From the IMG/VR virus record IMGVR_UViG_3300025635_000024: a stretch of 64,000 nucleotides of DNA; one strand, written 5' to 3'. The notes under the pieces are model-generated. The model made no database searches. It was not told the DNA's origin and was given only the letters and a program-made list of their open reading frames with translations. The position numbers and the translations under genes are program-made. The DNA is from an uncultured virus (IMG/VR IMGVR_UViG_3300025635_000024). Its lineage: Duplodnaviria > Heunggongvirae > Uroviricota > Caudoviricetes. This document shows positions 2,395 to 42,509 of this stretch, piece after piece. The number at the start of each line of letters is the position of its first letter. Position 1 is the stretch's first letter.

Positions 2395-5300
2395 TACTGC
2401 CTCAACCAAGTATTTGAAGACTCTGACGCTTGCTGCCAAATATTAGCAGTCGGAGAAGTATCAGTCCACGTTGACGAAGTAATAGAAGAATCTGACCATT
2501 CCTCGCCAATAATTTGACCATTTGCAATAACATCAGCATTTGCTGTAACTAAAGCATTAAAACTGTAAGTTGCACTACCGTAAGCTGAAACCTCAGAAAA
2601 TGCACTAACACTAGCAGACCCGCCAGCCGTAATGTTACCAATTCCTGAAACTATTGTATTTCCAGTAATATCACCTGAAGCAACTCTAACTCTAACAACT
2701 TGACCCTCAACAGAAGCATTAGCGGATATATCACCTGCAAATAACCTTGTCCTGTATCCAATAGCAGAAATTGCAGCGGCTGCAGATACATCACCAGCAA
2801 ATAATCGCACCCTTAAAGCAGAACCAGTTACGGTTGCGTCAGCCGTAACATCAGCAGAAGCATCAACATAATTACCAAAACTCCACCCAGTATTATTTCC
2901 TGAGTTTATATTTCCATTAGGTGCTAATGCTTGCCAAGTAGCGCCACCTGTTGCAGCACTATCCTTAATATCAAGATACGAAACGGACACAGTGCCGGAA
3001 GACTTGGACAGTGTGAATCTTGTACCAGACGTAGAACTGCGAAGCGATATTAAGTTACCGGATGTGCCAGACAGACTGAAGTTATTAAACGTGTTTGTCG
3101 TACTGGCAGGGAACGTAATCTGGCTTGCGGTAGCGTTCGTATTAGCAATGTCGTTAAACGTATTTGCGCCAGTAATTGTCAGCGTTCCAGCACCACCTTG
3201 GTTCAGTGTGCAGTTGTAGGTAGACCCCCCGCCCACAAACGTCTTAGCAGTTGCAGCAGTCATAGAGATCGTGCCTGTGCCAGTACCTGCTGTGGTAGTG
3301 AAATTAGTTGGTTGAGCGTTGTTAAATGCGGTCGTAGATGCGTTTGGACAAACTAAAGTCCCACCGTTAAACGTAAGATTTTTAGTTCCTGTGGCAGTTG
3401 TAAATGCTGTTCCTACTGTGCAAGTTTTTCCATTCAGGTTTAATGTTCCGTTAGTTAATGTCATGGTTCGTGTAGAACCCATTGTAAAAGCATCTTCAAG
3501 CCTGAATGTTCCACCTACACCGTTAAACGTAACAGGGAAATCTAAAGTTTTACCGTTAGTTGTTATTAACTGCGTTCCACTGGTAGCGCCGAATGTAATT
3601 GCGCTAGATGATGCAGTTAATGACATACCCGTAGAAAGCGTTAAGTTGCCGTATATGGTTGCAGTTGATGTTGCCTGCCACGTTCCAGCGTATCCAGTAA
3701 AGTCTACGTTTTTTACTGTATGAGAAGAAACAGCTAAAAAAGTTAATGCGTAAGTTCCACCAGTAAAATTAAAACTTATAGAGTCTGATTCTGACAAGGT
3801 TCCGGGAGCAACAGATATAGAAGTTGACCCTGATGATGTTACATTGACTACTTGAGTACCAGTTGTAGTTAAATTAGTTGATACTGAAGTTGTCCAAACA
3901 GTACCAGTACCAGAACAAGATATATTTCCAGTACCAAATGCAATAGTTCTTGTGTTGCTATTAGTTGAAGAAAATAATCCTGTTGTCAATGTCAGATTGT
4001 TCAGGTCTAACGTACCCTGCGTTAAAGTAGTGGTAAGCGTTGATCCTAACGTAAGATTATTTGTAAGAAGCTGAATACCACCGCCGGGAGCGTTTATTGT
4101 TACTGGCTGCGTAAATGTTTTACCACCAGAGTTGAGTGTCTTTGTGGAGCGATTAGAGAATGTGTATGTTCCAGTACCAGTAGGTGTTACGCCTGATCCG
4201 TAAGTAAAGTCGCCGTAGAAAGTTGGCGTATTTGTACTTGACGCTAACGTCATTGCATTAGTACGTGTTGATGCGTCTAACGTACCGATATTCCAGTTAC
4301 CATTGATTGTTATGGTGTTTCCAGCAGTTAATCCTGTGTTTTCAATAATTGCCGTGTCTTGAGGTAGTGGGTAGTTAGTATCTGCTACGCCTCCACCTGA
4401 ACTTGTTGCCCAAGCAGTTGCAGTCCAGTTACCACCAGCCGCCAAGTTCCAATACTTGTTTGCACCAGCCACAAATGTAATATTGCTGTTGCCGCCGCAG
4501 TCTCCCAATCGAGTACCAGACAACGTACCAGCCGCGCCAGCTATTGTGATGTCTCTAAAGTCAACATCAGTCATAGCAGCAATAGCCGCGCAAGTTAGTG
4601 TGCGTGATGTTCCAAGCGTATCGGAACGAACAAATTGTCTGCGGTTACCATTAGAACCGTTGACTGTTAGAGTTCCATTGATTGTCTGGTTTGCGCCAAA
4701 AGTGATGTTGTTTAATGCAGCAGCGGCTGGAGTTGAAAACGTCAGATTATTAAATGTGTTTGCGCCAGTAATTTGTTTAGAAGCTGTAAGAGAAGAGGTA
4801 CTTGCAAAAGATACGTTGTAGTAAGTAAGCCCCCCACCAGCAAACGATGCAGCTAAATTAGACGTAAAATTTATTGTTGACATACCAGCATTTAACGTTG
4901 CATTTGTGCTGGTTGTCATAGTCCAAGCAAAGTTAAAAGTAGTTAGTGTAATTGTTGAACTGTTTAAATTTATTGTCCTTACGTTTGAATTACTTGAAGA
5001 AAATGCAGCCGCAGTAACGGAATAATTACTTGCTGATGTGTCAAACGTACCGTTTGTTAGTGTAAGCGTAAACGAACCAATATTTAACGCAGAACCCAAC
5101 GTCCATGCTCCACCAACACCATTGAGTGTAGTAGCAACACCAATCGTTACGCCATTCGTTGTAATTGTTTTGCCTGTAGTCGTGGCATTAAACGTCAGTG
5201 TTCCTGCTGTATTTGTTGCAGCAAAGTTAGTGGCTTGATTTGTCCATGAGCCAGATACGGTAAGTGTAGATGACGAAAAAGCAAGCGTCATTGCACCGTC

Positions 5301-5528
5301 TAATGCTTGTGGCGCACTTGCCCCACCAATGGTTATATCGTTACAAACCGCAGCCGATACCGTAACGGTAAACGCGCCTGTACCTGTGTTTGAGTTGGAG
5401 TCAAAAAAGACGTTATCCGCAGCCGTAGGCGCAGATGCTCCTGCAGCACCGCCAGATGATGCGGCCCAGTTACCTGTGTTGGTAGTGTTCCATGTACCTG
5501 ATCCACCAACCCAATAGCGATCTGCCAT
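2394..5528 (-). CDS. Large Thr/Gly/Asn-rich fibre or adhesin-like virion protein, copy 1 (1044 aa)
   Basis: Repetitive beta-helix-like sequence. The first ~880 aa are homologous to 39668..42337, followed by a unique ~160-aa C-terminus. Confidence 0.75.
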   Translation of the reverse strand: MADRYWVGGSGTWNTTNTGNWAASSGGAAGASAPTAADNVFFDSNSNTGTGAFTVTVSAAVCNDITIGGASAPQALDGAMTLAFSSSTLTVSGSWTNQATNFAATNTAGTLTFNATTTGKTITTNGVTIGVATTLNGVGGAWTLGSALNIGSFTLTLTNGTFDTSASNYSVTAAAFSSSNSNVRTINLNSSTITLTTFNFAWTMTTSTNATLNAGMSTINFTSNLAASFAGGGLTYYNVSFASTSSLTASKQITGANTFNNLTFSTPAAAALNNITFGANQTINGTLTVNGSNGNRRQFVRSDTLGTSRTLTCAAIAAMTDVDFRDITIAGAAGTLSGTRLGDCGGNSNITFVAGANKYWNLAAGGNWTATAWATSSGGGVADTNYPLPQDTAIIENTGLTAGNTITINGNWNIGTLDASTRTNAMTLASSTNTPTFYGDFTYGSGVTPTGTGTYTFSNRSTKTLNSGGKTFTQPVTINAPGGGIQLLTNNLTLGSTLTTTLTQGTLDLNNLTLTTGLFSSTNSNTRTIAFGTGNISCSGTGTVWTTSVSTNLTTTGTQVVNVTSSGSTSISVAPGTLSESDSISFNFTGGTYALTFLAVSSHTVKNVDFTGYAGTWQATSTATIYGNLTLSTGMSLTASSSAITFGATSGTQLITTNGKTLDFPVTFNGVGGTFRLEDAFTMGSTRTMTLTNGTLNLNGKTCTVGTAFTTATGTKNLTFNGGTLVCPNASTTAFNNAQPTNFTTTAGTGTGTISMTAATAKTFVGGGSTYNCTLNQGGAGTLTITGANTFNDIANTNATASQITFPASTTNTFNNFSLSGTSGNLISLRSSTSGTRFTLSKSSGTVSVSYLDIKDSAATGGATWQALAPNGNINSGNNTGWSFGNYVDASADVTADATVTGSALRVRLFAGDVSAAAAISAIGYRTRLFAGDISANASVEGQVVRVRVASGDITGNTIVSGIGNITAGGSASVSAFSEVSAYGSATYSFNALVTANADVIANGQIIGEEWSDSSITSSTWTDTSPTANIWQQASESSNTWLRQ

Positions 5529-5700
5529 TTATCATTCCTTTGGTTCTTCTGGAGGAGCAGTAATGACAGCAATCCAGTTATCCAGACGTTGCTGTTTCAT
5601 TGCTTCAATTTCTGATTCAGTAAACGTATGATCGTCTGGCAAATGCAAAGCATCGCAGAACTTGCCATACTGAGTATCAAAACAAAAATCAATCTTCATG
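2882..5700. repeat. Direct repeat copy 1 (~2.8 kb, small ORF + fibre), with perfect core 4180-4694
   Basis: Base-by-base reading shows 4180-4694 identical to 41007-41521; the flanks are similar but diverged. Confidence 0.95.
5532..5699 (-). CDS. 55-aa fibre-associated protein, copy 1 (MKIDFCFDTQYGKF...)
   Basis: Near-identical to 42341..42508 and directly upstream of the fibre gene in both copies. Start set at the ATG conserved in both copies. Confidence 0.75.
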   Translation of the reverse strand: MKIDFCFDTQYGKFCDALHLPDDHTFTESEIEAMKQQRLDNWIAVITAPPEEPKE

Positions 5701-5701
5701 A

Positions 5702-7108
5702 TTAAGCTTGAGTTGTAACCGCGATGGCATCCCAACGGGTATTGTCGGCGTTATAAATGCAGCCCACATACGTTGTCTTACCAGCAGTAGTGGAGGTTGG
5801 TAGGGTGACACCTATAGCAGTATAGGTAGCGTTCCAGGTTAATGACCGGCTCGTACCATTATCCAAAAATCTAAACAATAATTTATTGCCGTTTACTGGC
5901 GTGCCAATAGGCGCATTTATTGTTAATCCTGAAGCTAATGCTGTGTAAGCGTATACATCTTTTGCTGATATATCAGGCGTTAAAGATGTAGCTGTAGCAG
6001 CAGAAACACTTCTAGGATCTAATCTTGGTGAGTTACTTTTTTCCCATAGATCTGTTGTGCTGTTATATACAATGGTTTGGCCATTGCTAGGCGATTGCGC
6101 AGCAACATTATGCAGTTCATCTAACTCATAGCCATTCTGTACTTTAACAAATAGTTTTCCTTGCGTAGGGTGTGCATACTCAACAATAGCTACATAAACA
6201 AGATGATCAGGAGCGTAAGGTTTTGTACTCGTATACGTACCAGCAACTGTAGGACTTAAATATAACTGCGTTCCATCGGAGTACGCCGACGTATCCATCC
6301 CGGTAACCAAACCGATGATGGTTACATATCCATTTGCGTTATTTGCTAGATCCGCCGATATAACACCTAACGTCTGTGCTGAAGTAGTATCGCCGCTTGC
6401 AAGAGCTTTGGTTACAGTAGAAATTTGACCTGTAGCGCCAGAGATATAGACTACCGTTCCTTTAGTCAGGGTTGCGCCAGTAGTATTTCTAACTTGAGCA
6501 ACTACATTCGTGGTTGATGCAGCTACTGCTACAGATAAATCTACGGCGCCGCTAGTGGTAGTTACCGTCACACTGCCATCGGCAGAAGCAACCGAGCTAA
6601 TGCCACCACCGCCATTGTTAGTGGACATGGTAGTGACATGACGGATTTGTTCAGCTAGATTGGGTGCGACTACCTCACCGACATTTATCTCTTTGCCAGT
6701 CGATAAAGTAATAACTAACGAACCGTCAAAATCGATTTTTGCGTCTGTAACCGATACGCCGTCTTTACCATCTACGCCATCGCGCCCATCACGACCATCT
6801 TTACCGTTTTTTCCCTCTAGTCCTCGAGGACCAGGTGGCCCATCCTTACCATCACGGCCATCTTTGCCAGGCCGCCCTTCAATTTTGGCTGCTTTATCGT
6901 TAAAACTTTGCTCAAAAAGGTTAAATTTATCTTCTATGTCGTTACGTATCTTTTTTAACGACTGTAAAACCAAATCCGTATTGGTTTTTACCAATTCTTT
7001 TTGGCGTACTTTGCTGTTTACTAATGCTTTTTCGATAGATGACAGAAGTTTTACCTGTTCTGACAGGCTCATGCTATCTAAATTAAGGTTTTTTATGATG
7101 TCACTCAT
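5702..7108 (-). CDS. Phage B collagen-repeat virion fibre or decoration protein
   Basis: N-terminal coiled coil, G-X-Y run (GRPGKDGRDGKDGPPGPRG...), Thr-rich C-terminal domains; directly after the portal. Confidence 0.7.
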   Translation of the reverse strand: MSDIIKNLNLDSMSLSEQVKLLSSIEKALVNSKVRQKELVKTNTDLVLQSLKKIRNDIEDKFNLFEQSFNDKAAKIEGRPGKDGRDGKDGPPGPRGLEGKNGKDGRDGRDGVDGKDGVSVTDAKIDFDGSLVITLSTGKEINVGEVVAPNLAEQIRHVTTMSTNNGGGGISSVASADGSVTVTTTSGAVDLSVAVAASTTNVVAQVRNTTGATLTKGTVVYISGATGQISTVTKALASGDTTSAQTLGVISADLANNANGYVTIIGLVTGMDTSAYSDGTQLYLSPTVAGTYTSTKPYAPDHLVYVAIVEYAHPTQGKLFVKVQNGYELDELHNVAAQSPSNGQTIVYNSTTDLWEKSNSPRLDPRSVSAATATSLTPDISAKDVYAYTALASGLTINAPIGTPVNGNKLLFRFLDNGTSRSLTWNATYTAIGVTLPTSTTAGKTTYVGCIYNADNTRWDAIAVTTQA

Positions 7109-9147
7109 TAGCGTAACCCTTTAGAGAGCTCTTCTAAAAAGTCATTATCAACTTTTAGGTTATCTTCGGCTGTTTTAGCCATTTGCATCTCGACAATCTT
7201 CGACTTGTTCTTGATGTCGGCTTCTTTTAGCATCAATTCGGCGATCTTCACCCGTTTGTCAAACTCTTTGGACGCCATCTCGTCGTTAGTTGGCAGATTC
7301 TGCGTATTGGCGGCCATAATCTTGCTCTGCACCTCAATCGGCTTTAATTTCGTCTCGATTGTGGTGTTAATGGCTTCCGCCCGGTTGCGTTCAGCCTGCG
7401 TCTGGTTGACCGCAATCTGCGCTTGCGCTGCCTGCATGGCCAGTTGCTGCTGCATCATGGCTGCTTGCTGCGCTTCTGGGTTAGGCTGCGCCATCTGCGT
7501 CAGCGATTCCATCAGCTCCATGCGGTTTGACAGCGAGCTGTTGGCCACAATACCCTTCAGAATCAGCGGCAAGACTGGTGTGTCGGGGCCAAGGGTCTGC
7601 AGCAAGGCGATAAACTGCGCTTGCTCGTACTCACGGGCGATGATACCCAGTGTGGCGGTCGGCACGAAGTTCAGATCGACCGATGGATAGCGCTCGGGGT
7701 CGAACTGCATGTACCGAAACGCCGCTTTTTTGATGAACGGAATCAGGAAGTCTTCCTGGAAGTTCACCAGCGTGCGCTTGTACTTCTTGATGATGGTCGC
7801 CACCGCCATTGACATGCCTGCATTGCCGCCATCACGGGCCACTTGGCTCACCATGCCTTGGCTATCCAAGGTGCCTGTGGCTTGCAGCAGCATGCGCTCG
7901 AACGCCTGCGCGGTGGTCAGGTTGTTGCCATCAGTCTGGCCAAACTTGAACGGGTACAGGATCTCGGACGGGTTGCCGTTGGTCATGAACGCCTTGCCCG
8001 GCCGCACCTCAAACTTGGCACCCCGTGGCAGACGGGTGGCGTCCATTGCCACCATCGGCACTGCAGTTAGCGCCAGCGAGTCCAAGTGCGTTCTGACTTG
8101 GGCATCGATCGCCTTTTGCATGTTGTACGCTTTTTCCACCGTGCCACGGCCAGGCAGCCGGTTGGGCACCGTGTCGTCCTGGTAGGTCAATACCGGACGG
8201 TCCTTCATCATGTACGGATTCTCTTCGGCTTTTAGCAACATGCTGTCGTTGCCGATGACCACGATAGCTTCGACCAAGTCGGTGTACTCTTCCGCCGCCG
8301 AATCTTCGGGGAACAGCTCGACCATTTCCTCGTCTTCGCTGTTCAACTTCGCCAGATACTCTTTAGGCACCAGACCATAGTAGGTCAGCAGTTTGACCTT
8401 CTCGTTCTGGTACTGGCTGACCTCTTGCGTAGGTTCCAAGTCCGTGTCGTCGTAGGTCGGCACGATGTTGACCTTACGATAGACGCCCTTTTCAATGTTG
8501 GCCACCACCTTGTGGATCGAGACGTACTTCTCAATCGCCACACCCATGCAGTCGTCCACCGACGTGCCGTTGGGATCCCACAGGAAGTTCTTTGGATTCA
8601 CGGGTATGGGCTTGACCGAGACGCGATCCGTCTCTTGCACGCCGATAGCCGCTTGACCTTGCATGCCGGGAATCGGTTGCGTGGCTGGCGTGTACTCTTT
8701 TTCCATCGTGACCGTGATCTCGGCGATACCCGTGCCGTAAATCTCAGCCAAGAGCTCGATCTGATCGACGTACTTCCTGAACTTGTCCTTTTTCAGATCC
8801 TCCATCATCTGGATCTTGATCATCTCGACATCCATCGGATTGCCGTCGATGTCCTTGACGTCGTCCTTGATGTCGAAGAACTCGCCCGAACCAAAGATCG
8901 CCTCCATGATCTCAGCGTGTCTGGTTTCGACCGCCTGCTGCGTCATGGGGGTTACGATGCGGGAGCGTTCAGAGTCGCGCGTCTTGTCTTCGATGGCCCA
9001 TTCACCACGGAAGATGCGCTCATATTCTTCCCATTGCGGGAGAAAGTTGACGTTGCGGTAGTCGCGCCAGCGGTCGCAGTGGTCTACCACGAAAGCGATA
9101 AGCTCTTTATCGTTCTCAGTGGGCTGGTCAAAATCGTTTTGGTCCAT
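7108..9147 (-). CDS. Phage B portal protein
   Basis: 679 aa directly after terL, with a Q/A-rich helical C-terminal barrel as in P22-like podovirus portals. Confidence 0.85.
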   Translation of the reverse strand: MDQNDFDQPTENDKELIAFVVDHCDRWRDYRNVNFLPQWEEYERIFRGEWAIEDKTRDSERSRIVTPMTQQAVETRHAEIMEAIFGSGEFFDIKDDVKDIDGNPMDVEMIKIQMMEDLKKDKFRKYVDQIELLAEIYGTGIAEITVTMEKEYTPATQPIPGMQGQAAIGVQETDRVSVKPIPVNPKNFLWDPNGTSVDDCMGVAIEKYVSIHKVVANIEKGVYRKVNIVPTYDDTDLEPTQEVSQYQNEKVKLLTYYGLVPKEYLAKLNSEDEEMVELFPEDSAAEEYTDLVEAIVVIGNDSMLLKAEENPYMMKDRPVLTYQDDTVPNRLPGRGTVEKAYNMQKAIDAQVRTHLDSLALTAVPMVAMDATRLPRGAKFEVRPGKAFMTNGNPSEILYPFKFGQTDGNNLTTAQAFERMLLQATGTLDSQGMVSQVARDGGNAGMSMAVATIIKKYKRTLVNFQEDFLIPFIKKAAFRYMQFDPERYPSVDLNFVPTATLGIIAREYEQAQFIALLQTLGPDTPVLPLILKGIVANSSLSNRMELMESLTQMAQPNPEAQQAAMMQQQLAMQAAQAQIAVNQTQAERNRAEAINTTIETKLKPIEVQSKIMAANTQNLPTNDEMASKEFDKRVKIAELMLKEADIKNKSKIVEMQMAKTAEDNLKVDNDFLEELSKGLR

Positions 9148-9148
9148 C

Positions 9149-10408
9149 CTACACCCCAGAAATTACGTCTATCGGCTCCCAATCATCGTCAGCATCGTCG
9201 ATGAAGTAGGAAGTCACCGCCAGCTGGTCAATGTAAGAGAGCGCATCGGGTAGGTCATCGTGGACGCCTTGCGCCGGAAACATCAACAGCTGGTCAAGAA
9301 AGGTCTCAAAATCACCTTCTTGGTTGAGCACGATCCTGCCGTGCTCGAACCGACCCTGGAGGCTCCAGATGATCCGGTCAGCCTTTTTCCGGTTGCCATG
9401 CGTGAGATCAACTATGTGCGAATATACATTATTTTTGCGCATTAAATCACTCAAATACGGCAAAACCGCGTTTTTTAGTGCCCCTCGCTCAATCCCGACC
9501 GACAGGGGCCGGTAGTCGCGCATGGCCATTAGAATCTTCGCTGCCGTCTCGCGGATGTCCCAGCGCCCGTGCTGAATGTCCTTGACGAACCACTTGCCGT
9601 CGTCCGTCACTTTCACGATCGCGATCGCCGTCTCGTCCAGTCGCTTCTTCGAGTTCGCCGCCTGCTTGGCCACTTCCTCAAACCCGGCCAAGTCCACCGC
9701 CACGAAGTAGCTGCCATAGTCCGGCTCCTCGCCATACTTGATCCACTCGTCCTTGAAGATGTCCGAGCCCGCGTTGTCAAAACTTGCCATGTACTCTTGC
9801 TTAAATGCAAAGGTCGATAGCGTCTTTTTCGCCGACTCGATTTCCTTCGGGTCAATCAGCGGATTGTCTTTGGTCGTGAAGTGCCAGCTCTTCCAGTCCG
9901 TGTCGTCGCCCGTCTGTCCTAACTTGTATAGGTCGTTGAACCAGTTTCGACCCTTGGGCGTTCCAATGAACATGGCGCGACCCTTCTTGTCGGACAGAGA
10001 CGCGCGAATGACCTGCTCCCAGGCTTCGGGCTTGATGTCCGCCACCTCGTCTAGCACGGCGTAGGTCAAGGACACGCCTCGCAGGGTGTCTGGCCGATCC
10101 GCGCCACGCACGTAGATCACCGCGCCGTTGACCATCGTGATGTCCTGATTGTTCACATGACTGCCGGCGATCACTTCCTTGCCCAGCTCTAACAACACAT
10201 TCCAGATAATCTGTCGCGCCTGACCGTTGGTGGGCGCTACGTACAGGACCGCCGAGCCAGGCGGGCAGCGCAGCGCCTCGATGATCAGCGTAGTAGCCGC
10301 TAACCTAGACTTGCCACAACGCCTGCCAGCGGCCACCACTTTAAAGCGCGTTGGGTCGTTGAAGACCTCCTGCTGCCAGGGTAGTAACTGGAAGTTAAGG
10401 TCCGACAT
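9149..10408 (-). CDS. terL: Phage B terminase large subunit
   Basis: Walker A AGRRCGKS, Walker B AVLDE, GTPKG motif, RNase H-like VDLA and HDDLPDA. Confidence 0.95.
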   Translation of the reverse strand: MSDLNFQLLPWQQEVFNDPTRFKVVAAGRRCGKSRLAATTLIIEALRCPPGSAVLYVAPTNGQARQIIWNVLLELGKEVIAGSHVNNQDITMVNGAVIYVRGADRPDTLRGVSLTYAVLDEVADIKPEAWEQVIRASLSDKKGRAMFIGTPKGRNWFNDLYKLGQTGDDTDWKSWHFTTKDNPLIDPKEIESAKKTLSTFAFKQEYMASFDNAGSDIFKDEWIKYGEEPDYGSYFVAVDLAGFEEVAKQAANSKKRLDETAIAIVKVTDDGKWFVKDIQHGRWDIRETAAKILMAMRDYRPLSVGIERGALKNAVLPYLSDLMRKNNVYSHIVDLTHGNRKKADRIIWSLQGRFEHGRIVLNQEGDFETFLDQLLMFPAQGVHDDLPDALSYIDQLAVTSYFIDDADDDWEPIDVISGV

Positions 10409-11280: not shown

Positions 11281-11320
11281 AAGCAAAACCCCTAAAAAAA
11301 CGTGTTATCAAAATATAAAA

Positions 11321-11569: not shown

Positions 11570-11616
11570 TAAACCGCGCCAAAAGCAAAAAAACGCATGA
11601 AAATGCAAAAGATTGT

Positions 11617-11645
11617 TTGACACATGCCGATTTATGGTCTAACCT
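11617..11645 (+). promoter_or_regulatory. Sigma70-type early promoter of phage B
   Basis: TTGACA, 17 bp, TAACCT, about 40 bp upstream of the first + strand early ORF. Confidence 0.7.
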
Positions 11646-11873: not shown

Positions 11874-11880
11874 ATCAAAC

Positions 11881-33348: not shown

Positions 33349-34904
33349 GACAGCCTTCCGTTTTTCGACTGAATTTCAATTTTCTGAATCGACAGCGCCG
33401 AAGAATTAATATCCGCCTCATAACCTGTTTGCACAATGCGACCAGACCCCGTGCCTTGTGCGTAAAGTGTTTGTAATGCAATACCATCGGCGTACTCCGC
33501 AAGAGGAACACCATTAGAACCATACTCTGCTATGCCGTACTCAGATACACTCTGCGTTGGGATTTGCGTGTTTTGCGACAAATAATTTTCGCTAAAATCG
33601 AAACACCATTTAATCGTCACATATTGATTCGTGCCGCCAATCACAATAACGCCAATGCGTTTCAATATAGACGTAACACTTTGGTCGCCCAAGTCGCTAT
33701 GGTTGGTGTAGTACTGAAAACGGTACTCAGCAGTGTCATCTAGATAGGTGCTGTACTTGCCAATGTAACCAGTCTGTCCCAGCAGCAAATCGCCATTACG
33801 GCGCGATAATAACGCCGATGGCGTAATCGACGTCCATACAGTAACTCTTGATGACCCATCAGGAAGATACCCGCGAGTATCAAATACATATACCGATTGA
33901 TTGCTAGGTAGTGTTAGCAAATAAAATGCATTTATTTCCGAGTACACGGCCTTGATGTTTGCCAATGTCTCGCCCGCAACAATACCCATAAAGTCATTAC
34001 GCACATTCTTGCTGATGTCGCGAAACGGTGCTGACTTTTCCTGAATCGTGCGCATTAACGACCGCACGCCGCTGTTGGACAGGAAGAAGACATCGGTCGC
34101 AGTGCCTTGGATTGAGTCGCGCGCGATGCAGCCAATGCCCACTACTGTATCGTTTAACGACATTGTGGCCGGCGCCGTTGCGCCTTGATATACCAATATC
34201 TGGCGCTTGCCGAAGATAATCAGGAAATTGTTGTGGGCTGCCAGGCCAACGATCTCGTCTGGTCCAGCAGGCCAAACGTTATTCACATTCAACGTGCCAG
34301 ACGTGCCGCCGGTATAGATATGCCCCGCCAGCAGATCCGAAAACGTCAATGTTTGCTTGTCAGATGCCGTATTAGCAATCCACAGACGACCGTATGCTGA
34401 GATGACGATATTGCCTGACGGCACCGTGCCTGCATAGCCTGTCTTCTCGCTCACACGGCGATACGTGGTGGTGCTGACCGCTGGATCGTAAATTAGCGGG
34501 TCATGGCCCGTCTGGAAGAAATAAGTAATGCCATTAAGCGAGGCGCACTGCCAGTTGTTGGCTGTGATCGTCGGGGCAGTACCCCCTCCCCCGTAGGTCA
34601 ACTCGACAACCGCATTGCTGCCATCAAGCTTAAAAATCTTGTTGTTGCCGGCAAACAGTACGGTGTATGTGCCGTCCGCTACTACCAGTTCATGAATGAC
34701 GCCGACGTCATTAGCGCCCAAGTTGCCAGAGCTGCTATTGACTTTAGACCAGCCTTTACGTGCGCCGACACGGCCGTATTGATCGATGACGCAGTTAGTT
34801 GCGACTAGCGCAAAACCAGCGTTCAAATCAAGCGGGGAATCTTGGGTATTCAGGCCATAAAAGCCTGGCGCCGAGATTGTATCGATGCGCAGTGGCTGGC
34901 TCAT
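33345..34904 (-). CDS. Phage B tail nozzle (tubular protein B-like)
   Basis: 519 aa beta-propeller-like, follows the adaptor gene. Confidence 0.7.
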   Translation of the reverse strand: MSQPLRIDTISAPGFYGLNTQDSPLDLNAGFALVATNCVIDQYGRVGARKGWSKVNSSSGNLGANDVGVIHELVVADGTYTVLFAGNNKIFKLDGSNAVVELTYGGGGTAPTITANNWQCASLNGITYFFQTGHDPLIYDPAVSTTTYRRVSEKTGYAGTVPSGNIVISAYGRLWIANTASDKQTLTFSDLLAGHIYTGGTSGTLNVNNVWPAGPDEIVGLAAHNNFLIIFGKRQILVYQGATAPATMSLNDTVVGIGCIARDSIQGTATDVFFLSNSGVRSLMRTIQEKSAPFRDISKNVRNDFMGIVAGETLANIKAVYSEINAFYLLTLPSNQSVYVFDTRGYLPDGSSRVTVWTSITPSALLSRRNGDLLLGQTGYIGKYSTYLDDTAEYRFQYYTNHSDLGDQSVTSILKRIGVIVIGGTNQYVTIKWCFDFSENYLSQNTQIPTQSVSEYGIAEYGSNGVPLAEYADGIALQTLYAQGTGSGRIVQTGYEADINSSALSIQKIEIQSKNGRLS

Positions 34905-35551
34905 GAAGCGTAAAACTCCTGCATTTCAGGAAAGCGAGTGGCTTCCAAAGCAATGTAGTCCGACAGCATGGTTTTGTACAGCGCGTAAGCCTCAGACGAA
35001 TTAAGACCGCCGTCCTCGCCGCGCTCAACCAGCGCTCTGGCGTAAGCATTCTGAGTCACCAATACATCTGGCACTAATACGGAAGTGGAGTCCGACGACA
35101 GCGTGGCTTGCGGCACCGACAGGAAAAACTTGATACTGTAGACACCGTTAGGGCGGCCCCACAATTGCACCTTGGCGTCGCCGTTGCCATCCACACCTTC
35201 AAAGCAATATTCCGTGGGGACTGCGGTAACCGTGGGTTGCAAATTTTGCTTGCGGCGCATGTCGCCTACAGGGATAACCTGCATAACGACGTTGCTGGTG
35301 GTGTTCAATGGATCGCTGGTAACACGGAATTTCTGCCCGGCGCCAGTCATGGAGTATTCATAAGTGCTTGCTGAAGTAGTGATCGTTATCTCTTGCCCAA
35401 GCGCATTCCAGTCGTAAGCATCCTCAATCTGACGCTTGGCGTCATTGACGAACTTGCCGATCAGGGAAGAGTAGGTAGTCAGGCCGACCGTTGTCACCTG
35501 CGTCTCTCGCAGGCGGGCCAAGACATCATTGACGAGTTCCAAGTAGGTCAT
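34901..35551 (-). CDS. Phage B head-tail adaptor (tubular protein A-like)
   Basis: MTYLELVNDVLARLRE N-terminus typical of podovirus adaptors. Confidence 0.7.
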   Translation of the reverse strand: MTYLELVNDVLARLRETQVTTVGLTTYSSLIGKFVNDAKRQIEDAYDWNALGQEITITTSASTYEYSMTGAGQKFRVTSDPLNTTSNVVMQVIPVGDMRRKQNLQPTVTAVPTEYCFEGVDGNGDAKVQLWGRPNGVYSIKFFLSVPQATLSSDSTSVLVPDVLVTQNAYARALVERGEDGGLNSSEAYALYKTMLSDYIALEATRFPEMQEFYAS

Positions 35552-35850
35552 TTGCTTTTCGCCTTATTCCTTGCGGATATAGCTTTAGCTTTTGCCTTTG
35601 CATCTGCCTTGGATGATGCCCCCCAAGCATTTAAAGACAGCAAGAGCCGAGTAGGCTGACCGTCTTTACGCTCGGGACCGGGCATATTGCCCATCCTGGC
35701 GAGAAAAGAAGCTCGTCGCGGGTTGTCGCCAGATTTTACCGGCGCTTTGAGGTTGCCCCCAGTTGCTGCATTATAAGACTCCCGGCCTTTGGCATTCAAG
35801 CCGCCCTTTGCATTTTGACCGGCCTTTCTTTGCCAAGCTGGAGTTTTCAT
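35548..35850 (-). CDS. Basic conserved phage protein (DUF6321-like)
   Basis: GGLNAKGR...RRASFLARM...LSL.AW; homologue at 53597..53881. Confidence 0.7.
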   Translation of the reverse strand: MKTPAWQRKAGQNAKGGLNAKGRESYNAATGGNLKAPVKSGDNPRRASFLARMGNMPGPERKDGQPTRLLLSLNAWGASSKADAKAKAKAISARNKAKSK

Positions 35851-36005
35851 TTCTTCCTCGCTGCCCTCAAGTTATCGACCATATTGGGATAGGGCCGTCC
35901 GGCGGCCTTTGCCATTCGTTTTGCCGCTGCCTTTTTGGCAGGCGCCAAGGGTTTGGACGGGCCTAACTTTTCAGGCCGCTTCTGCTCCCAGATTGGCTTT
36001 TTCAT
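35847..36005 (-). CDS. 52-aa Lys/Ala-rich basic protein
   Basis: Hand translation MKKPIWEQKRP...GRPYPNMVDNLRAARKK; ATGA overlaps. Confidence 0.65.
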   Translation of the reverse strand: MKKPIWEQKRPEKLGPSKPLAPAKKAAAKRMAKAAGRPYPNMVDNLRAARKK

Positions 36006-36166
36006 TTCTTGGCCTTTTTCTTGGCCATGCCAGCCTCAGACAGCGCAATGGCGATTGCCTGCTTTTTAGATGTAACGACAGAGCCGCCTTTGCCGGAATG
36101 CAAGGAACCTGCCTTGTATTCGTGCATGACCTTACCGACTTTCTTTTGGCCTTTGCTCATCTTCAT
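36002..36166 (-). CDS. Small basic protein (DUF6496-like)
   Basis: KVMHEYKAGSLHSG...KQAIAIALSEAG; homologue at 55103..55267. Confidence 0.7.
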   Translation of the reverse strand: MKMSKGQKKVGKVMHEYKAGSLHSGKGGSVVTSKKQAIAIALSEAGMAKKKAKK

Positions 36167-36168
36167 GA

Positions 36169-36576
36169 TCACTCCTTGGTGATAGGACCGCCTGATTTCC
36201 ACGCGTCGCAAGTACGATTCGACGCGCAAGTAAACTGGAACAAATCGCAGTAGCCAAGATCGGCAGCGGCTACAAACTGCTCATCGTAAGACAACTCATT
36301 CTTGCCTTCGTTTTTTTCCAAACCCCCAATGATGCACTGCATCATGGCTGGCGTCTGGATAAAAGCCGCGCAATTACCGCACCGCATGCCTTTTACCGTG
36401 GCCGTAGGAGCGTTATACATGGTGGCTTTTTTCATCCAAAAAGCCGTGTTTGCCTCATTCGGATTAGGTGGCCCATAACCATACTCTTTGAACGCATGGT
36501 TGCGGTTCTTCAGATTGACAGACACGTCCTGTGTTGCCACAGGGCATTGTTTGCCGGACAACAGGCCGGTTTTCAT
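36169..36576 (-). CDS. Cys-rich conserved phage protein
   Basis: YGPPNP, RCGNCAAF, GYC...F.CA..RTC.AW; homologue at 54481..54960. Confidence 0.7.
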   Translation of the reverse strand: MKTGLLSGKQCPVATQDVSVNLKNRNHAFKEYGYGPPNPNEANTAFWMKKATMYNAPTATVKGMRCGNCAAFIQTPAMMQCIIGGLEKNEGKNELSYDEQFVAAADLGYCDLFQFTCASNRTCDAWKSGGPITKE

Positions 36577-36779
36577 CTGAAAAATACCCGATCCATGATG
36601 AACGCCGCCGCACCACTAATGGCCGACACGATCGCCATGCCTACCCAAAAACCGCCTTTGGATTTATTGGCCATCTCCAGCAGTTTTTTAACGTCTTCGC
36701 GCAAGGCGTGCACCTCCACTTGGAGTGCTTCCACCTGGGCTTCGAGTTTTCCAAACTCGCGTGGGTCAATTTCCGACAT
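36573..36779 (-). CDS. Small coiled-coil + C-terminal TM protein
   Basis: 68 aa with a single terminal hydrophobic helix. Confidence 0.65.
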   Translation of the reverse strand: MSEIDPREFGKLEAQVEALQVEVHALREDVKKLLEMANKSKGGFWVGMAIVSAISGAAAFIMDRVFFR

Positions 36780-36969
36780 TTTCTAGTTTCCTTGGACGCC
36801 CCATGCGTTTGGCTGGCGGCGTTAAGATGACCGAAGATGACACTCCGTCCGCAGGTTCTTCAGGCTCATCAACCCGCACGTAGCCCTGATGGCCTTTCAT
36901 GCTGTCGATATCGTGCTGATGAACGAACGTAACCGTTTGGCCACTGACCAAACATTTGAATGTCGCCAT
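36766..36969 (-). CDS. Hypothetical protein
   Basis: GGAG RBS before MATFKC. Confidence 0.6.
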   Translation of the reverse strand: MATFKCLVSGQTVTFVHQHDIDSMKGHQGYVRVDEPEEPADGVSSSVILTPPAKRMGRPRKLENVGN

Positions 36970-36986
36970 AAAATCTCCAGAAGGCA

Positions 36987-37012
36987 AACTGGGGGCGGTG
37001 GCCCCCAGTTTT
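36987..37012. terminator. Terminator hairpin after the capsid decoration gene
   Basis: AAACTGGGGGC-GGTG-GCCCCCAGTTT. Confidence 0.7.
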
Positions 37013-37338
37013 TACGCCAGTGAACGAGCTACAACAATACGCAGTGTGGCCGAAGCCAGATCTACGGTACTGCCAGATTCGTTTTGCAGACGGAATTTGA
37101 CCGTATTGGCGGCGCTGACATAGCCAGTGACCGTAATACCCACCAAATCCACGCCCAACGAAGCGCCAATCACCATGTCGCCAAGCGCTACGCCGGGGAC
37201 GGTGACGTCATCAGTCTCACCCGCACCATCAGCCAGCGAACCAGCATCCAGTGTGGCCTTGACTAGCCAAGTATTTGAGAAAAGACCGCGAAACTGGTCA
37301 TTGCCAGCGCGGACTGTTACGGAAGATGCAGTTGCCAT
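37012..37338 (-). CDS. Capsid decoration / cement protein
   Basis: 108 aa beta-rich protein directly after the MCP. Confidence 0.6.
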   Translation of the reverse strand: MATASSVTVRAGNDQFRGLFSNTWLVKATLDAGSLADGAGETDDVTVPGVALGDMVIGASLGVDLVGITVTGYVSAANTVKFRLQNESGSTVDLASATLRIVVARSLA

Positions 37339-37358
37339 GATGTTCTCCTAATTAGGTT

Positions 37359-37385
37359 AAAAATCCCCGGCCGAAGCCGGGGAGT
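37359..37385 (-). terminator. Intrinsic terminator after phage B MCP
   Basis: CCCCGGC-TTCG-GCCGGGG-ATTTT. Confidence 0.8.
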
Positions 37386-37389
37386 TTAA

Positions 37390-38361
37390 TTAGGCTGGAA
37401 CAGCCAGAGCAAAAGCCGAGGACGAGGTTGCAGCACCCGTAGTCGCGGCAGTACGCATGGCTTTAACGCCATACAGCATGTCGGACGTGAACAGCGTGCC
37501 CAGGTATTCCTGCTTGTACTGGGTCTGCGAACGAACGCCCATCTGCTCAACCAGAACCATCGATTCCTTGTGGCCCATCAGGCAGATACGGTCAGCGCCC
37601 GAGTTACCAGCGCCAGTATCAGCATTGGAAGTCACGAACACAGGGATACCGTACAGGTTGCCGATTTCGCCGTTACGGATGGCGTTGCCATCACCCACGA
37701 ATGCCTGCTCAGTGTAGCGAGCCAGACCCATCAGCGTGTTACGGCTGGATGGTGGGATGATGAAGAAACGACCGTCCATTGGGGTGTCGTTGTCGTCCAG
37801 ACGCTGGATGGTACGACGGATTGCAGCATCGGTCAGGGCAGCAGCGTTCGAGGTCGCGCTGTTGTACGCAGTGGTGCCGTCCGAGCCGATATAAGCTTTG
37901 GTGCTGGACGCCGAAGTTGCGTAGTCATCAGTGCCAATGGTGGCGCCGTTAAACGCGCGGCCAAGTTGAACCAGATCGGTGTCAACTTGCTTGGCCAGTG
38001 CATAGCCAGCATCGCTGGTATAGAACTGACGCAGCGAGTTCAGAGCTTGAGCTTCGACGATGTCTTCGATCAGGCGGCTGTACTCGTAGTGCTTGTTGAT
38101 CAGGATCTGAACTTCAGATTCAGTCGCGGCGATCAGTGTGACTGCATTGGTGGCTACTTTTGCCGAAGCCGAGCCACGGGTTGGGGCGGGAACGTGAACG
38201 GTGTCACCTTTCTTGCCCTTGAAGTTCATCTTCATCACAACATTGGCCAGAACCAGGTTCTTTTTGTAGGCCGCAACAATCTCATCACTCCAAATCTCTG
38301 GGATAAAGGTTGCTGCTGTTGTGGTTGTTACACTATTTGCTGGGGAAAATGCGGTTGCCAT
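37390..38361 (-). CDS. Phage B major capsid protein
   Basis: FIPEIWS, GDTVHVP, YALAKQVD, D.LYGVK motifs; follows the scaffold. Confidence 0.9.
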   Translation of the reverse strand: MATAFSPANSVTTTTAATFIPEIWSDEIVAAYKKNLVLANVVMKMNFKGKKGDTVHVPAPTRGSASAKVATNAVTLIAATESEVQILINKHYEYSRLIEDIVEAQALNSLRQFYTSDAGYALAKQVDTDLVQLGRAFNGATIGTDDYATSASSTKAYIGSDGTTAYNSATSNAAALTDAAIRRTIQRLDDNDTPMDGRFFIIPPSSRNTLMGLARYTEQAFVGDGNAIRNGEIGNLYGIPVFVTSNADTGAGNSGADRICLMGHKESMVLVEQMGVRSQTQYKQEYLGTLFTSDMLYGVKAMRTAATTGAATSSSAFALAVPA

Positions 38362-38389
38362 GTCTAACTCCTAAAGTCAAAAGTAAAAT

Positions 38390-39148
38390 TTACTTGACCC
38401 GTCCTTCTGCATAGGCCGCCATAATTTCATCGGACAGCGCATCGTATCTAGCCGGGTCGGTCATTTTCAGCCGAATTAGGTCAGCCCTGCGATAGACACG
38501 TTTTGAACTCTCTCCGGTACCCCCTACATCTACCTGCGCGGCTTTCAAGGTCTGCTGGCGGGCTTCCTTACCGGATTGATCCGCCTGCTTTTGCTTGATA
38601 CCGCGTATCTGCTTGTAGGTTGTCAGCAATTCATTGGCCGCATCGAAATCAAACCCGGCATCCGCCCGTGCGTAGAGCTCCAGACGAACCTGAGACGACT
38701 TAATCCATGTCTCAAAGTCCTTATCTGCCCCGATCTCCATGAAATCTGGGTGCTCTTGCGCCAAGCGCTGCTGAGTTTGCATCCGTTTGAACTCAATACC
38801 TGCCTGTTTGGCAGCAAGTACGTCAGGATGTGTCTCAACGGTCTTTTGAATCGCCTTTTGAGGGTCTTCAAAAAAGTCTACTTCAGGCTCTGCCTTCTCA
38901 ACAGGTTGAGGTTTTGACGAGAGATTCTGCTTGATGAGCTCATCGGCCAGTTTCCGCACTTCCCCGACTTCTTGCGCCTGGCGCCCAATGACCTTTTCGG
39001 CCTCCTGGTGCATCTTGACAATGTCCTCGATCGACTTTCCGCGATAGCGGTCTGGCAATTCTGGGACTTGGGGCGCTGCTAGTTCAGGTAGTTTCGCTTC
39101 TTCTGCCTCCAACTCACTAGGCATCTCTGGTTCTTTATCAATCAACAT
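38390..39148 (-). CDS. Phage B capsid scaffolding protein
   Basis: Acidic coiled coil ending EIMAAYAEGRVK, upstream of the MCP. Confidence 0.8.
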   Translation of the reverse strand: MLIDKEPEMPSELEAEEAKLPELAAPQVPELPDRYRGKSIEDIVKMHQEAEKVIGRQAQEVGEVRKLADELIKQNLSSKPQPVEKAEPEVDFFEDPQKAIQKTVETHPDVLAAKQAGIEFKRMQTQQRLAQEHPDFMEIGADKDFETWIKSSQVRLELYARADAGFDFDAANELLTTYKQIRGIKQKQADQSGKEARQQTLKAAQVDVGGTGESSKRVYRRADLIRLKMTDPARYDALSDEIMAAYAEGRVK

Positions 39149-39212
39149 GTCGAAGTTCCTTTTCCTGCCATCTTTTGGTTCTCAGGATTAAACATGAACA
39201 GGGCATTTCTGC

Positions 39213-39440
39213 TTATCTGTTCGCCTTCTGCTCGGATTTTAGCTTGTCTCGGTGGCTTTTATCAAACTTTGCGTGAGCTGTTGGAAACGCTCCCGACCAC
39301 CCTTCCAATTTAAACGCCGGTGCAGATATGGTGCGGCTGGCCGTCTTGCCGCAATTGCAACGAACTACTTTGTCTTCATATTCGACAAATCGTTCGATGC
39401 GCTCTCCACTTTCGCAGAGAAATTCAAAGATCTTTCTCAT
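39213..39440 (-). CDS. FmdB-like Zn-ribbon protein
   Basis: FEFLC...C.CG....R.ISAP.F.L.G. Confidence 0.65.
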   Translation of the reverse strand: MRKIFEFLCESGERIERFVEYEDKVVRCNCGKTASRTISAPAFKLEGWSGAFPTAHAKFDKSHRDKLKSEQKANR

Positions 39441-39663
39441 TGAGTCCCTCGTATGCCTCTTCGCTGACCTGTTTCAGGGTTTTCAGCCAATTTAGGATAG
39501 ATAACTCACCCTTCTTAAATTGTAAATCCTTTTCGTCTTGAATAGTGGATACATTATTTAAAGATGTTATCATTCCGTCAATATCTTCCAATAGATCGCG
39601 CCAGCCCTGGTGGGCCATCATGGCAAACCGATCTTCATAATAGCGTTGCAATTCTGGCGTCAT
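39424..39663 (-). CDS. Conserved head-module small protein
   Basis: 79 aa (GW..L...KGEL.IL), position before the scaffold. Confidence 0.7.
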   Translation of the reverse strand: MTPELQRYYEDRFAMMAHQGWRDLLEDIDGMITSLNNVSTIQDEKDLQFKKGELSILNWLKTLKQVSEEAYEGLNEKDL

Positions 39664-39667
39664 AGTA

Positions 39668-42337
39668 TTAGTTAAAAAACATTAAGAAATTGCCGGTAGC
39701 AAGACCAAAATTCCATCCAGTATTATTGCCTGAGTTTACGTTACCATTTGCTACAAATGCCTGCCAAGTAGCGCCACCTGTAGCTGCACTATCCTGAATA
39801 TCAAGATAAGAAACGGATACAGTGCCAGAAGCATCGGATAGTGTAAATCGAGTGCCTCCAGTAGAGCTACGGATTGACACCAAGTTGCCGGATGTGCCGG
39901 ACAAGGTGAAGTTATTTACCGTTGTTGTACTAACAGGGAACGTAATCTGGCTTGCGGTAGCGTTCGTATTAGCAATGTCGTTAAACGTATTTGCGCCGGT
40001 AATGGTCAGCGTTCCAGCACCGCCTTGGTTTAATGTGCAGTTGTAAGTGAAACTACCTCCAGCAAATGTCTTAGCACTAGCAGATGTCATTGAAATCGCA
40101 CCTGTTCCAGTACCTTGTGTTGTACTAAATCCACCAGCACCAGTAGCATTCCAAGCAGTTGATCCACTACCAGAAATTAACAACGTTCCACCGTTAAATG
40201 TTATGTTTCTTGTGTTAGCTCCCTGTGAGGATGCTGTACCAGTTGTTAAAGTAAATCCAGCAAGATTAACGGTACCCGATACAAAAGCCGTGTTTCTTGT
40301 TGACCCTATTGTTAAAGCATCTTGAAGAACGTATGTTGCACTAGGAGCATTAAAGCTAATTGGAAAATCCATTGTTTTACCATTGCTGGTAATTTGTTTA
40401 GTTCCGCTTGTTGCTCCGAATGTCATTGTCAAAGATGATGCGGTTAATGACATTCCACTAGAAAGCGTTAAGTTACCGTATATGGTTGCAGTAGACGTTG
40501 CTTGCCATGTACCCGAGTAACCTGTGAAGTTTACATTTCTTGCGGCATAACCAGTTATACTTAAAAAACTAAGTGCATATGTACCGCCAGTAAAATTAAA
40601 ACTAATGGAGTTTGCTTCTGATAATGAACCTGTTGAGACAGTAATAGCAGTTGACCCTGATGAAGTTACGTTGACTACTTGAGTACCAGTTGTTGTTAAA
40701 TTAGTTGAGACTGCATTTGTCCAAACCGTACCCGTACCAGAACAAGATATATTCCCAGTACCAAATGCAATTGTTCTTGTGTTTGAGTTGCTTGAAGAAA
40801 ATAAACCTGTTGTTAGTGTAAGATTGTTCAGGTTTAACGTACCCTGCGTTAAAGTAGTGGTAAGCGTTGAGCCTAACGTCAGATTGTTTGTAATAAGTTG
40901 AATACCGCCGCCGGGCGCATCTATTGTTATTGGCTGAGTAAATGTAATACCACCAGAATTAAGTGTCTTTGTGGAACTATTACAGAATGTGTATGTTCCA
41001 GTTCCGGTAGGTGTTACGCCTGATCCGTAAGTAAAGTCGCCGTAGAAAGTTGGCGTATTTGTACTTGACGCTAACGTCATTGCATTAGTACGTGTTGATG
41101 CGTCTAACGTACCGATATTCCAGTTACCATTGATTGTTATGGTGTTTCCAGCAGTTAATCCTGTGTTTTCAATAATTGCCGTGTCTTGAGGTAGTGGGTA
41201 GTTAGTATCTGCTACGCCTCCACCTGAACTTGTTGCCCAAGCAGTTGCAGTCCAGTTACCACCAGCCGCCAAGTTCCAATACTTGTTTGCACCAGCCACA
41301 AATGTAATATTGCTGTTGCCGCCGCAGTCTCCCAATCGAGTACCAGACAACGTACCAGCCGCGCCAGCTATTGTGATGTCTCTAAAGTCAACATCAGTCA
41401 TAGCAGCAATAGCCGCGCAAGTTAGTGTGCGTGATGTTCCAAGCGTATCGGAACGAACAAATTGTCTGCGGTTACCATTAGAACCGTTGACTGTTAGAGT
41501 TCCATTGATTGTCTGGTTTGCACCGATAGTAATATTATTAAGTCCAGCAGAACCAATCGTAGAAAACGTCAGGTTGTTAAATGTATTTGCGCCTGTGATT
41601 GTTTTTGTTAAAGTTGTTGCTGTTGTTGATGTAAAAGAAACGTTGTAGTAAGTTAAACTACCGCCAGAAAAAGTAATAAGATTTGCAGTCAGGTTTATTG
41701 TTGACGTTCCAGCATTAAGTGTTGCATTAGTGCTAGTTGTCAAAGTCCAACTTGAACTTAACGAAAGCGTTGATCCGTTTAAATTTATTGTTCTTATGTT
41801 TGAATTGCTTGAGGAAAATGTTCCAGCAGTAACCGCATAATTACTTACTGATGTATCAAATGTACCGTTAGTTAATGTCAACGAAAACGTACTAAGATTT
41901 AACGCAGAACCAAGTGTCCATGCGCCACCAACACCATTTAATGTTGTAGTTACGCCAATTGTTACGCCGTTTGTTGTAATTGTTTTGCCAGTAGTCGTGG
42001 CATTAAACGTCAAGTTACCTGATGTATTTGTAACAGAAAAGTTGGTTGCTTGATTAGTCCACGAACCAGATACGGTAAGCGAACCTGTTGTACCAAATGC
42101 AAGCGTCATTGCGCCGTCTAGTGCGGTAGGGCTACCAACGTTGAAATCGTTACAGACCGCCGCAGAAACAGTAACGGTAAAAGCGCCTGTACCTACGTTT
42201 GAGTTGGAGTCAAAGAAGACGTTATCCGCAGCCGTAGGCGCAGATGCGCCTGAAGCACCGCCAGATGATGTTGACCAATTACTTATGTTGATAGTGTTCC
42301 ACGTACCTGATCCACCAACCCAATAGCGATCTGCCAT
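39668..42337 (-). CDS. Large Thr/Gly/Asn-rich fibre or adhesin-like virion protein, copy 2 (889 aa)
   Basis: Homologous to 2394..5528 but ends right after the shared domain with GNFLMFFN. Confidence 0.75.
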   Translation of the reverse strand: MADRYWVGGSGTWNTINISNWSTSSGGASGASAPTAADNVFFDSNSNVGTGAFTVTVSAAVCNDFNVGSPTALDGAMTLAFGTTGSLTVSGSWTNQATNFSVTNTSGNLTFNATTTGKTITTNGVTIGVTTTLNGVGGAWTLGSALNLSTFSLTLTNGTFDTSVSNYAVTAGTFSSSNSNIRTINLNGSTLSLSSSWTLTTSTNATLNAGTSTINLTANLITFSGGSLTYYNVSFTSTTATTLTKTITGANTFNNLTFSTIGSAGLNNITIGANQTINGTLTVNGSNGNRRQFVRSDTLGTSRTLTCAAIAAMTDVDFRDITIAGAAGTLSGTRLGDCGGNSNITFVAGANKYWNLAAGGNWTATAWATSSGGGVADTNYPLPQDTAIIENTGLTAGNTITINGNWNIGTLDASTRTNAMTLASSTNTPTFYGDFTYGSGVTPTGTGTYTFCNSSTKTLNSGGITFTQPITIDAPGGGIQLITNNLTLGSTLTTTLTQGTLNLNNLTLTTGLFSSSNSNTRTIAFGTGNISCSGTGTVWTNAVSTNLTTTGTQVVNVTSSGSTAITVSTGSLSEANSISFNFTGGTYALSFLSITGYAARNVNFTGYSGTWQATSTATIYGNLTLSSGMSLTASSLTMTFGATSGTKQITSNGKTMDFPISFNAPSATYVLQDALTIGSTRNTAFVSGTVNLAGFTLTTGTASSQGANTRNITFNGGTLLISGSGSTAWNATGAGGFSTTQGTGTGAISMTSASAKTFAGGSFTYNCTLNQGGAGTLTITGANTFNDIANTNATASQITFPVSTTTVNNFTLSGTSGNLVSIRSSTGGTRFTLSDASGTVSVSYLDIQDSAATGGATWQAFVANGNVNSGNNTGWNFGLATGNFLMFFN

Positions 42338-42509
42338 TTATCACTCCTTTGGTTCTTCTGGAGGAGCAGTAATGACAGCAATCCAGTTATCCAGACGTTG
42401 CTGTTTCATTGCTTCAATTTCTGATTCAGTAAACGTATGATCGTCTGACAAATGCAAAGCATCACAGAACTTGCCGTACTGAGTATCAAAAGAAAAATCA
42501 ATCTTCATG
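39712..42509. repeat. Direct repeat copy 2 (~2.8 kb), with perfect core 41007-41521
   Basis: See copy 1. Confidence 0.95.
42341..42508 (-). CDS. 55-aa fibre-associated protein, copy 2 (missed by the ORF track)
   Basis: Hand translation MKIDFSFDTQYGKF...; ATGA overlap with 42505..42891. Confidence 0.75.
   Translation of the reverse strand: MKIDFSFDTQYGKFCDALHLSDDHTFTESEIEAMKQQRLDNWIAVITAPPEEPKE

Follow-up and report, generated by a model that had tools for sequence, protein, structure and literature searches.

An apparently nested podovirus genome as a very probable assembly chimera of two phages sharing an identical tail-gene tract

The window analysed here is the whole 64,000-bp stretch of IMG/VR record IMGVR_UViG_3300025635_000024, in which one phage genome (phage B) appears to lie inside a fibre-like gene of another (phage A). 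We conclude with high confidence that this arrangement is an assembly chimera of two phages, joined through a tract that they share and that is truly identical in both. As biology, a whole genome nested in this way is not supported in view of a coverage step at the repeat and of the existence of phage B on its own, and we do not take it for a real feature. The identical 515-bp tract, on the other hand, is real, and is an ordinary recent gene exchange of a known kind.

Two phages and an exact repeat in one record

The window encodes two TerL proteins, two portals, two major capsid proteins (MCPs) and two replication modules. The portals of A and B are 20% identical over 433 aa and their TerL proteins 34% identical over 202 aa, and their MCPs have no significant BLASTP match to each other. 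A BLASTP comparison of 37 open frames of A with 67 of B, all outside the shared cassette of a small ORF and a fibre-like gene, returned 4 pairs. GC content is 53% in the body of B and 43-44% in the parts of A. Two replication modules had also been seen in the preliminary description of this DNA: that of B comprises PolA, a primase and an SNF2-type helicase, and that of A a DnaB-like helicase and DUF1376. The same description had counted two complete, unrelated head and packaging sets. Two far-apart sets of TerL, portal and MCP are indeed present, but phage A is incomplete in the window, and the TerS and scaffold genes of B are so labelled from their position.

Phage B occupies positions 4180..41006. 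Excision through the core of the repeat yields, as had been described, a coherent circle of 36,827 bp, and this circle has 0 mismatches to the nearest stand-alone record, the circular G001 (36,947 bp including an end repeat of 120 bp, 36,827 bp without it). On the minus strand, phage B carries the B allele of the 55-aa small ORF of the cassette (5532..5699; 100% match in another B record, L094, and no Pfam match above cut-off), the portal (7108..9147), the terminase large subunit (9149..10408), a family A DNA polymerase (16944..18890) and the MCP (37390..38361; phrog_267, E 1.7e-51). The putative TerS (10395..10706) is without a family match, and the putative scaffold (38390..39148) has an unnamed PHROG match only. 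A 49-aa mini-ORF lies on the plus strand at 21749..21898.

The outer sequence belongs to phage A. Its left part (1..4179; GC 43% over 1-2873) holds a 262-aa gene, a nozzle-like gene and the A-specific 3' half of the fibre-like gene, and is 95% identical over 4-2379 to G002, a complete 36,673-bp relative of A that is syntenic across the junction and was also nearest in the nozzle search. The putative nozzle, a virion protein (976..2439, minus strand), matches phrog_3287 (E 6.5e-61) and, weakly, a head-closure family. The right part (41522..64000) is syntenic with G002, mostly at 93-99% identity where aligned. On its minus strand are the A allele of the 55-aa small ORF (42341..42508), a 128-aa homolog of the fibre I protein gp80 of podophage GP4 (42505..42891; Pfam Gp80, 174.5 bits; PDB 8jou, E 5.6e-15) and a block for MCP, scaffold, portal, TerL and TerS (44540..51141) with SU10-type portal and MCP families. 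On the plus strand, A encodes a homologous recombinase, an ERF-family single-strand annealing protein (62261-62884; Pfam ERF, 50.7 bits against a cut-off of 25), with SSB adjoining (both within 62261..63132). Phage A amounts to 27,173 bp of the window, about 9.2 kb being missing as judged by G002. Since G002 is complete at 36,673 bp, one A-type genome is about half of the joined size. Relatives in the A family carry the 128-aa gene, the small ORF, the fibre and the nozzle in that sequence, as had been stated for A once B was removed.

Direct copies of the cassette flank the inner 36,827 bp, exactly as first described. The direct repeat spans 2874-5700 and 39704-42509 (82.8% identity over 2845 columns) and contains an exact 515-bp run, 4180-4694 = 41007-41521, at an offset of 36,827. 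A run this long has a probability of about 1e-39 against a background identity of 83% and of about 5e-10 against one of 95%, so chance cannot explain the core. Repeat alignment and flank phasing against G001 assign copy 1 (2874..5700) as A-left, core and B-right and copy 2 (39704..42509) as B-left, core and A-right. The core would be a graph node common to both phages (copy 1, 4180..4694), with a contig fork and a depth step at 41521 where copy 2 (41007..41521) ends.

Because G001 carries B flanks on both sides of the core, both long fibre-like ORFs of the window are assembly hybrids and are unfit for use as real alleles. The 1044-aa ORF at 2394..5528 (minus strand) consists of the 5' half from B, the core and the 3' half from A, including the ~150-aa C-terminal extension of A, an ending common to seven alleles on A backbones. 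The 889-aa ORF at 39668..42337 (minus strand) consists of the 5' half from A, the core and the 3' half from B. The fibre-like allele of B itself encodes 895 aa.

Origin of the join

We examined the sequences that flank the core in other records. In G001, the copy-2 flank lies to its left and the copy-1 flank to its right; the B flanks match at 1400 of 1400 bases on each side, whereas the A flanks match at 923 and 447 bases of 1400. Among fetched loci with the core sequence, B flanks alone were found in 10 of 10 and an A flank in 0 of 10, these ten loci amounting to about three independent data sets (several repeat G001, and three records have 39488 as their common first base). A core-motif search returned two viral and two metagenome stretches, all of them B, and an A-side junction motif was found in one stretch, in a B-type relative. 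In a collection from which records very close to the window may be missing, core-motif, A-side junction-motif and nozzle searches returned no stand-alone A record with this cassette. Phage B therefore stands alone as a genome, and for A the complete genome found is the ~95% relative with a different fibre.

The exact repeat in which the junctions lie is longer than the k-mer, and other assemblies fork at its edges. One contig (L087) ends exactly at 4180 and another (L178) ends 120 bases into the core; together they make up 36,827 + 240 bp and look like two pieces of one assembly that was broken at the core-edge fork.

Read depth also differs across the join. Six of 24 listed runs hold at least half of the words of window positions 37001-47000, and depth was compared in four runs over 35001-50000, in every case from contigs, which cannot phase a 515-bp repeat. 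Exact-match Logan contigs from run X1, which may be the source sample, had depths of 48.9 for B-left, 57.6 for the core and 10.4 for A-right (sum of the two sides 59.3, ratio 4.7), and another exact A contig had 13.6. The corresponding values from run X3 were 101.1, 104.4 and 7.8 (sum 108.9, ratio 13). Both runs have a core contig that stops at 41521 and an A-right contig that begins at 41492. A single contig of B-core-B type, at 11.3, was obtained from run X6; it extends from 39488 via B-left and the core and goes on as a diverged allele, and A bins in this run have a median depth of 0.6. Binned depth in X1, in which related strains are summed, showed a weaker step (median 48.3 in B bins vs 30.7 in A bins). 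X7, from a group of 18 runs whose shares were about 0.3, holds relatives of both phages; it has no cassette contig at 95% likeness and is uninformative on absence. The depth step, measured on the right side of A, means that B occurs mostly without A and says nothing on whether A occurs without B. Comparing coverage inside and outside the repeat had been proposed at the outset, with a step there as the result that would speak against a real co-integrate, and such a step is what we found at the core edge. Together with the stand-alone B circle and its B-B flanks, it supports the suggestion that two phages present together were joined by an assembler at their common repeat.

These observations are best explained as follows. 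Two separate freshwater podoviruses of about 36.7 kb would have been present in the same water, each with the small ORF and a predicted beta-solenoid fibre-like gene in a variable tail slot. The tract may have moved between them by two-ended homeologous recombination during co-infection of a cell, for which the Erf protein of A is a plausible agent, and this recent homologous exchange would have left 515 bp identical in both. An exact core that is longer than the k-mer and common to A and B turns the two circles into a figure-8 in the assembly graph, and this one is probably also longer than a read pair. The assembler may then have passed from A into the core, once round B, into the core again and back into A, and A presumably exists as an A-A circle of its own.

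It is very unlikely that the perfect identity is an artefact as well as the join, that is, that the core of A differs by a few bases and was collapsed onto the commoner B version. Phage A is the minority partner, and the core was seen in no stand-alone A record. Bubble removal in de Bruijn assemblers hides sparse differences and could have done so with those of A. Core depth is also slightly under the sum of the two sides (57.6 vs 59.3 in X1 and 104.4 vs 108.9 in X3). Nevertheless, the near-additive depth in X1 requires most core k-mers to be shared, and forks occur at the same edges in assemblies of different k. Even with a few hidden SNPs, moreover, the tract would still be recent against its 75-87% flanks.

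A real co-integrate, formed by a single crossover of A and B within the core in a co-infected cell and common enough, as a ~73-kb molecule beside an excess of free B, to direct the assembly, is in our estimate highly improbable. Neither hybrid ORF is interrupted or shifted out of frame, although an assembly-graph path through a repeat in register would leave them so too. A encodes an ERF protein, and the identical tract and a second shared module (described below) imply that both lineages meet in one cell. Depth alone would allow all of A to be joined to B, the joined form then making up at most about one in five B copies in X1 and one in thirteen in X3. However, the equal copy number of A and B expected of a co-integrate was not observed, and the B:A ratio shifts across runs from 4.7 to 13 and on to A at trace level. 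The A-B junction occurs in 0 of the 10 fetched core-bearing loci. Members of both families are 36-37 kb long, so that a joined molecule of ~73 kb would be twice the normal head load and probably not packageable whole, and there is no integrase to hold the joined form in a chromosome. Our literature searches, incomplete in coverage, turned up no natural co-integrate formed by two lytic phages. A proven co-integrate would be of greater importance, as modular exchange caught midway, but the evidence speaks against one. We likewise give a very slim chance to the broader reading that this record captured a real intracellular ~73-kb intermediate by which two podoviruses, unrelated and integrase-free, exchange segments of a common beta-solenoid adhesin; on that reading, the adhesin would be a recombining gene pool across phage families, refitted to each virion by a swapped C-terminus.

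The nested geometry with direct repeats might also suggest site-specific insertion of B, as a prophage or satellite-like element, into the fibre gene of A, the repeat being a target duplication, but this has a practically negligible probability given that the repeats are 2.8-kb diverged alleles rather than an att core, that B has head, packaging, polymerase and lysis genes of its own and outnumbers A, and that no tyrosine or serine recombinase was found in the window, G001 or G002. This last result rests on a PHROGs scan of 77 window ORFs, which found no integrase, and on PF00589 and PF00239 searches, which were negative in both G001 and G002 (0/2) and positive in 14/14 and 12/14 control genomes. 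The earlier statement that no recombinase is visible thus holds for integrases but not for the ERF-family annealing protein of A.

Exchange and possible role of the shared cassette

The A and B fibre alleles form a patchwork. Their identity is 94% in the initial 340 bp, falls to 76% in the ~650 bp that follow, reaches 100% in the core, is 87% in the 250 bp after it and 75-76% thereafter. Synonymous differences are absent from codons 302-421 and number 8-22 in other 60-codon blocks. The core has a shoulder of 86-90% identity over 3794-4179, with 70-80% just past its other side, so that a near-identical patch with an intermediate flank stands on a diverged background. The claim of a very recently transferred cassette accordingly applies to tracts (the core, with no synonymous difference, and the first 340 bp at 94%) but not to the remainder, which is 75-87% identical with many synonymous differences. 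Erf may have carried out the exchange.

The cassette is widespread, with a relative encoded in 125 viral stretches, and the content of the slot varies across relatives. Among the best 80 of ~600 matches per search, with duplicates kept, the small ORF was present in 8 of 46 A-family slots and in 2 of 41 B-family slots, B included. This first count suggested A as the donor; we set that idea aside after a fibre search found five more B-type backbones with the cassette, plus several others. For 17 chosen loci, a tree of the 5' fibre segment groups the A allele with those on B-type and other backbones (100/100), and a tree of the core has no resolved grouping. Among 30 distinct full alleles, the seven on close A-type backbones share one C-terminal ending, and a short phenylalanine-rich motif closes those found on B-type backbones and on several others. 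Judged from these sequences, the C-terminus is therefore likely to be a backbone-specific anchor.

We modelled the structure of the fibre-like protein from the B allele. A single-sequence model (pLDDT 41.5) was replaced by one built with a 29-row alignment, which is almost all-beta (pLDDT 91.5). Proteins with a related fold come from uncultured tailed phages and are either uncharacterised or labelled 'parallel beta-helix', and no PDB fold matched at E<=0.001. Pfam and PHROG searches gave no match to the predicted beta-solenoid protein, and the C-terminal extension of A has no meaningful match among PDB sequences; homology to a characterised fibre or spike was thus not found in Pfam, PHROG or PDB folds. 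The gene does lie in a variable tail slot where relatives carry tail fibres: in G002, the genes that separate the gp80-like gene from the nozzle are different, and three of them are PHROG tail fibres. Gene position and modelled fold together suggest a 'fibre' or 'receptor-binding' role, and the protein may bind the host. With its backbone-specific C-termini, this uncharacterised beta-solenoid family is a sensible choice for studies of host recognition.

Phages A and B share a second module. Pieces of the B mini-ORF at 21749-21898 match the A ORFs at 60850-61227 and 60319-60678 over 60 bp at 100%, 57 bp at 96% and 35 bp at 97%, and the 60-mer is also present in G002. The identical tract and this mini-module link two phages with unrelated heads, and they point to, and predict, a common host. 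Matches that might indicate that host are diverse: the nearest cultured MCP match is a Methylophilales phage (54%), the only fibre match among GenBank phages is a partial one to a Limnohabitans phage, and matches among MAGs are taxonomically mixed. More generally, recent exchange of fibre genes creates exact repeats between co-occurring phages, and these can place double-size 'genomes' and hybrid fibre proteins in databases.

Comparison with known systems

Chimeric joins between genomes are described by Chen et al. (2020, PMC7111523) as marked by differences in coverage and ancestry, with misassembly at perfect repeats longer than read pairs, and the COBRA paper (PMC10914622) describes end overlaps of fixed length at regions common to genomes. 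Both sources, in the parts that treat such joins, describe inter-genome chimeric contigs as rare. The window resembles these de Bruijn inter-genome chimeras in its join at a perfect repeat, in the differences of coverage and ancestry on each side and in the fixed-length overlaps (here 120 bases) at contig ends where another assembly was interrupted. It is unlike the cases described in those parts in that both junctions of the figure-8 fall within one record, which makes one genome look nested.

The exchange itself has a parallel in lambdoid phages, whose mosaicism by homeologous recombination Martinsohn et al. (2008, PMC2327257) describe as 'hits' with 'shoulders' and medians of 400-500 bp. 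Erf is placed in the same Rad52-like superfamily as Red-beta (PMC2896510). A patch of about 500 bp that is near-identical, an intermediate flank and the presence of a phage single-strand annealing protein are common to those cases and ours, at least as that account presents them. Those phages are temperate lambdoids of one family; here, in contrast, the heads are unrelated, there is no integrase and the tract is 100% identical.

The fibre I module of podophage GP4 (gp80, PDB 8JOU, PMC13730344) offers a comparison for the slot. The 128-aa gene beside the cassette in A encodes a gp80 homolog, and its position adjoining the cassette places the slot in a tail-fibre region. Unlike the GP4 module, as far as the source describes it, the module shared by A and B is built on a predicted beta-solenoid protein that stands apart from Pfam, PHROG and PDB entries.

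Cassette alleles and the boundary of the shared tract

Exact runs of 40-65 bp link the A or B allele of the fibre cassette to cassettes carried on other backbones (loci L189, L192, L179/L190, L215 and L185), although outside these runs the same cassettes are only 75-80% alike to the A and B alleles. One such run, 45 bp long, joins the B-type locus L189 to the A allele at the boundary of A's 515-bp core. This pattern suggests that numerous small tracts have been exchanged among cassettes.

Where the shared tract ends may itself vary among A variants, as judged from contig ends only. The core contig from run X1 begins at 40984, 23 bases ahead of the core edge in the window (40984-41006, corresponding to 4157-4179) and exactly where the next 19-bp exact run beyond the core starts, whereas the fork in L087, one of two apparent pieces of a B assembly, lies at 4180.

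Tail slot, distant relatives and a probable further fork in phage B

The collagen-containing tail-like gene of B (5702-7108) has a GC3 of 0.33, close to that of the cassette (0.30) but unlike the 0.55-0.76 of B core genes, so the whole tail slot looks either foreign or subject to a codon bias of another kind. In the distant B-type phages L139 and L165, the cassette's fibre-like protein is found in a much longer version (1738 aa in L139), and the small ORF ahead of it is 73% identical.

The interval 17858-17980, inside the B DNA polymerase gene, is probably another graph fork, common to B and a relative. The end repeat of G001, the stand-alone circular record of B, is located here, as is the second break implied by the lengths of L087 and its companion piece L178.

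Variable regions of phage A and sequence common to both phages

The 226-aa ParB-like ORF that follows the portal of A (46743-47423) is, on sequence comparison, an optional insertion: it is absent from G002, the complete relative of A, and from an X7 contig in which 46741 is joined directly to 47439. G002 is also unlike A across 51159-53600, upstream of terS, where A has a ParB-methyltransferase fusion together with a 236-aa ORF of no family match and a methyltransferase-like ORF.

A 49-aa mini-ORF of B (21749-21898) corresponds to the start and end of a 125-aa ORF of A plus the end of a 119-aa ORF, the counterpart region in A being 60317-61201. A 60-bp exact piece of this mini-ORF is present in G002 too, and most of 60299-60849 appears to be absent from that genome. 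Further small genes are common to B (35548-36576) and A (53597-55267) at ~70-80% DNA identity, namely a 94/100-aa pair (75% amino acid identity) and a 135/159-aa pair (52%); these genes would either stem from exchange at an earlier time or belong to an accessory pool shared by both phages.
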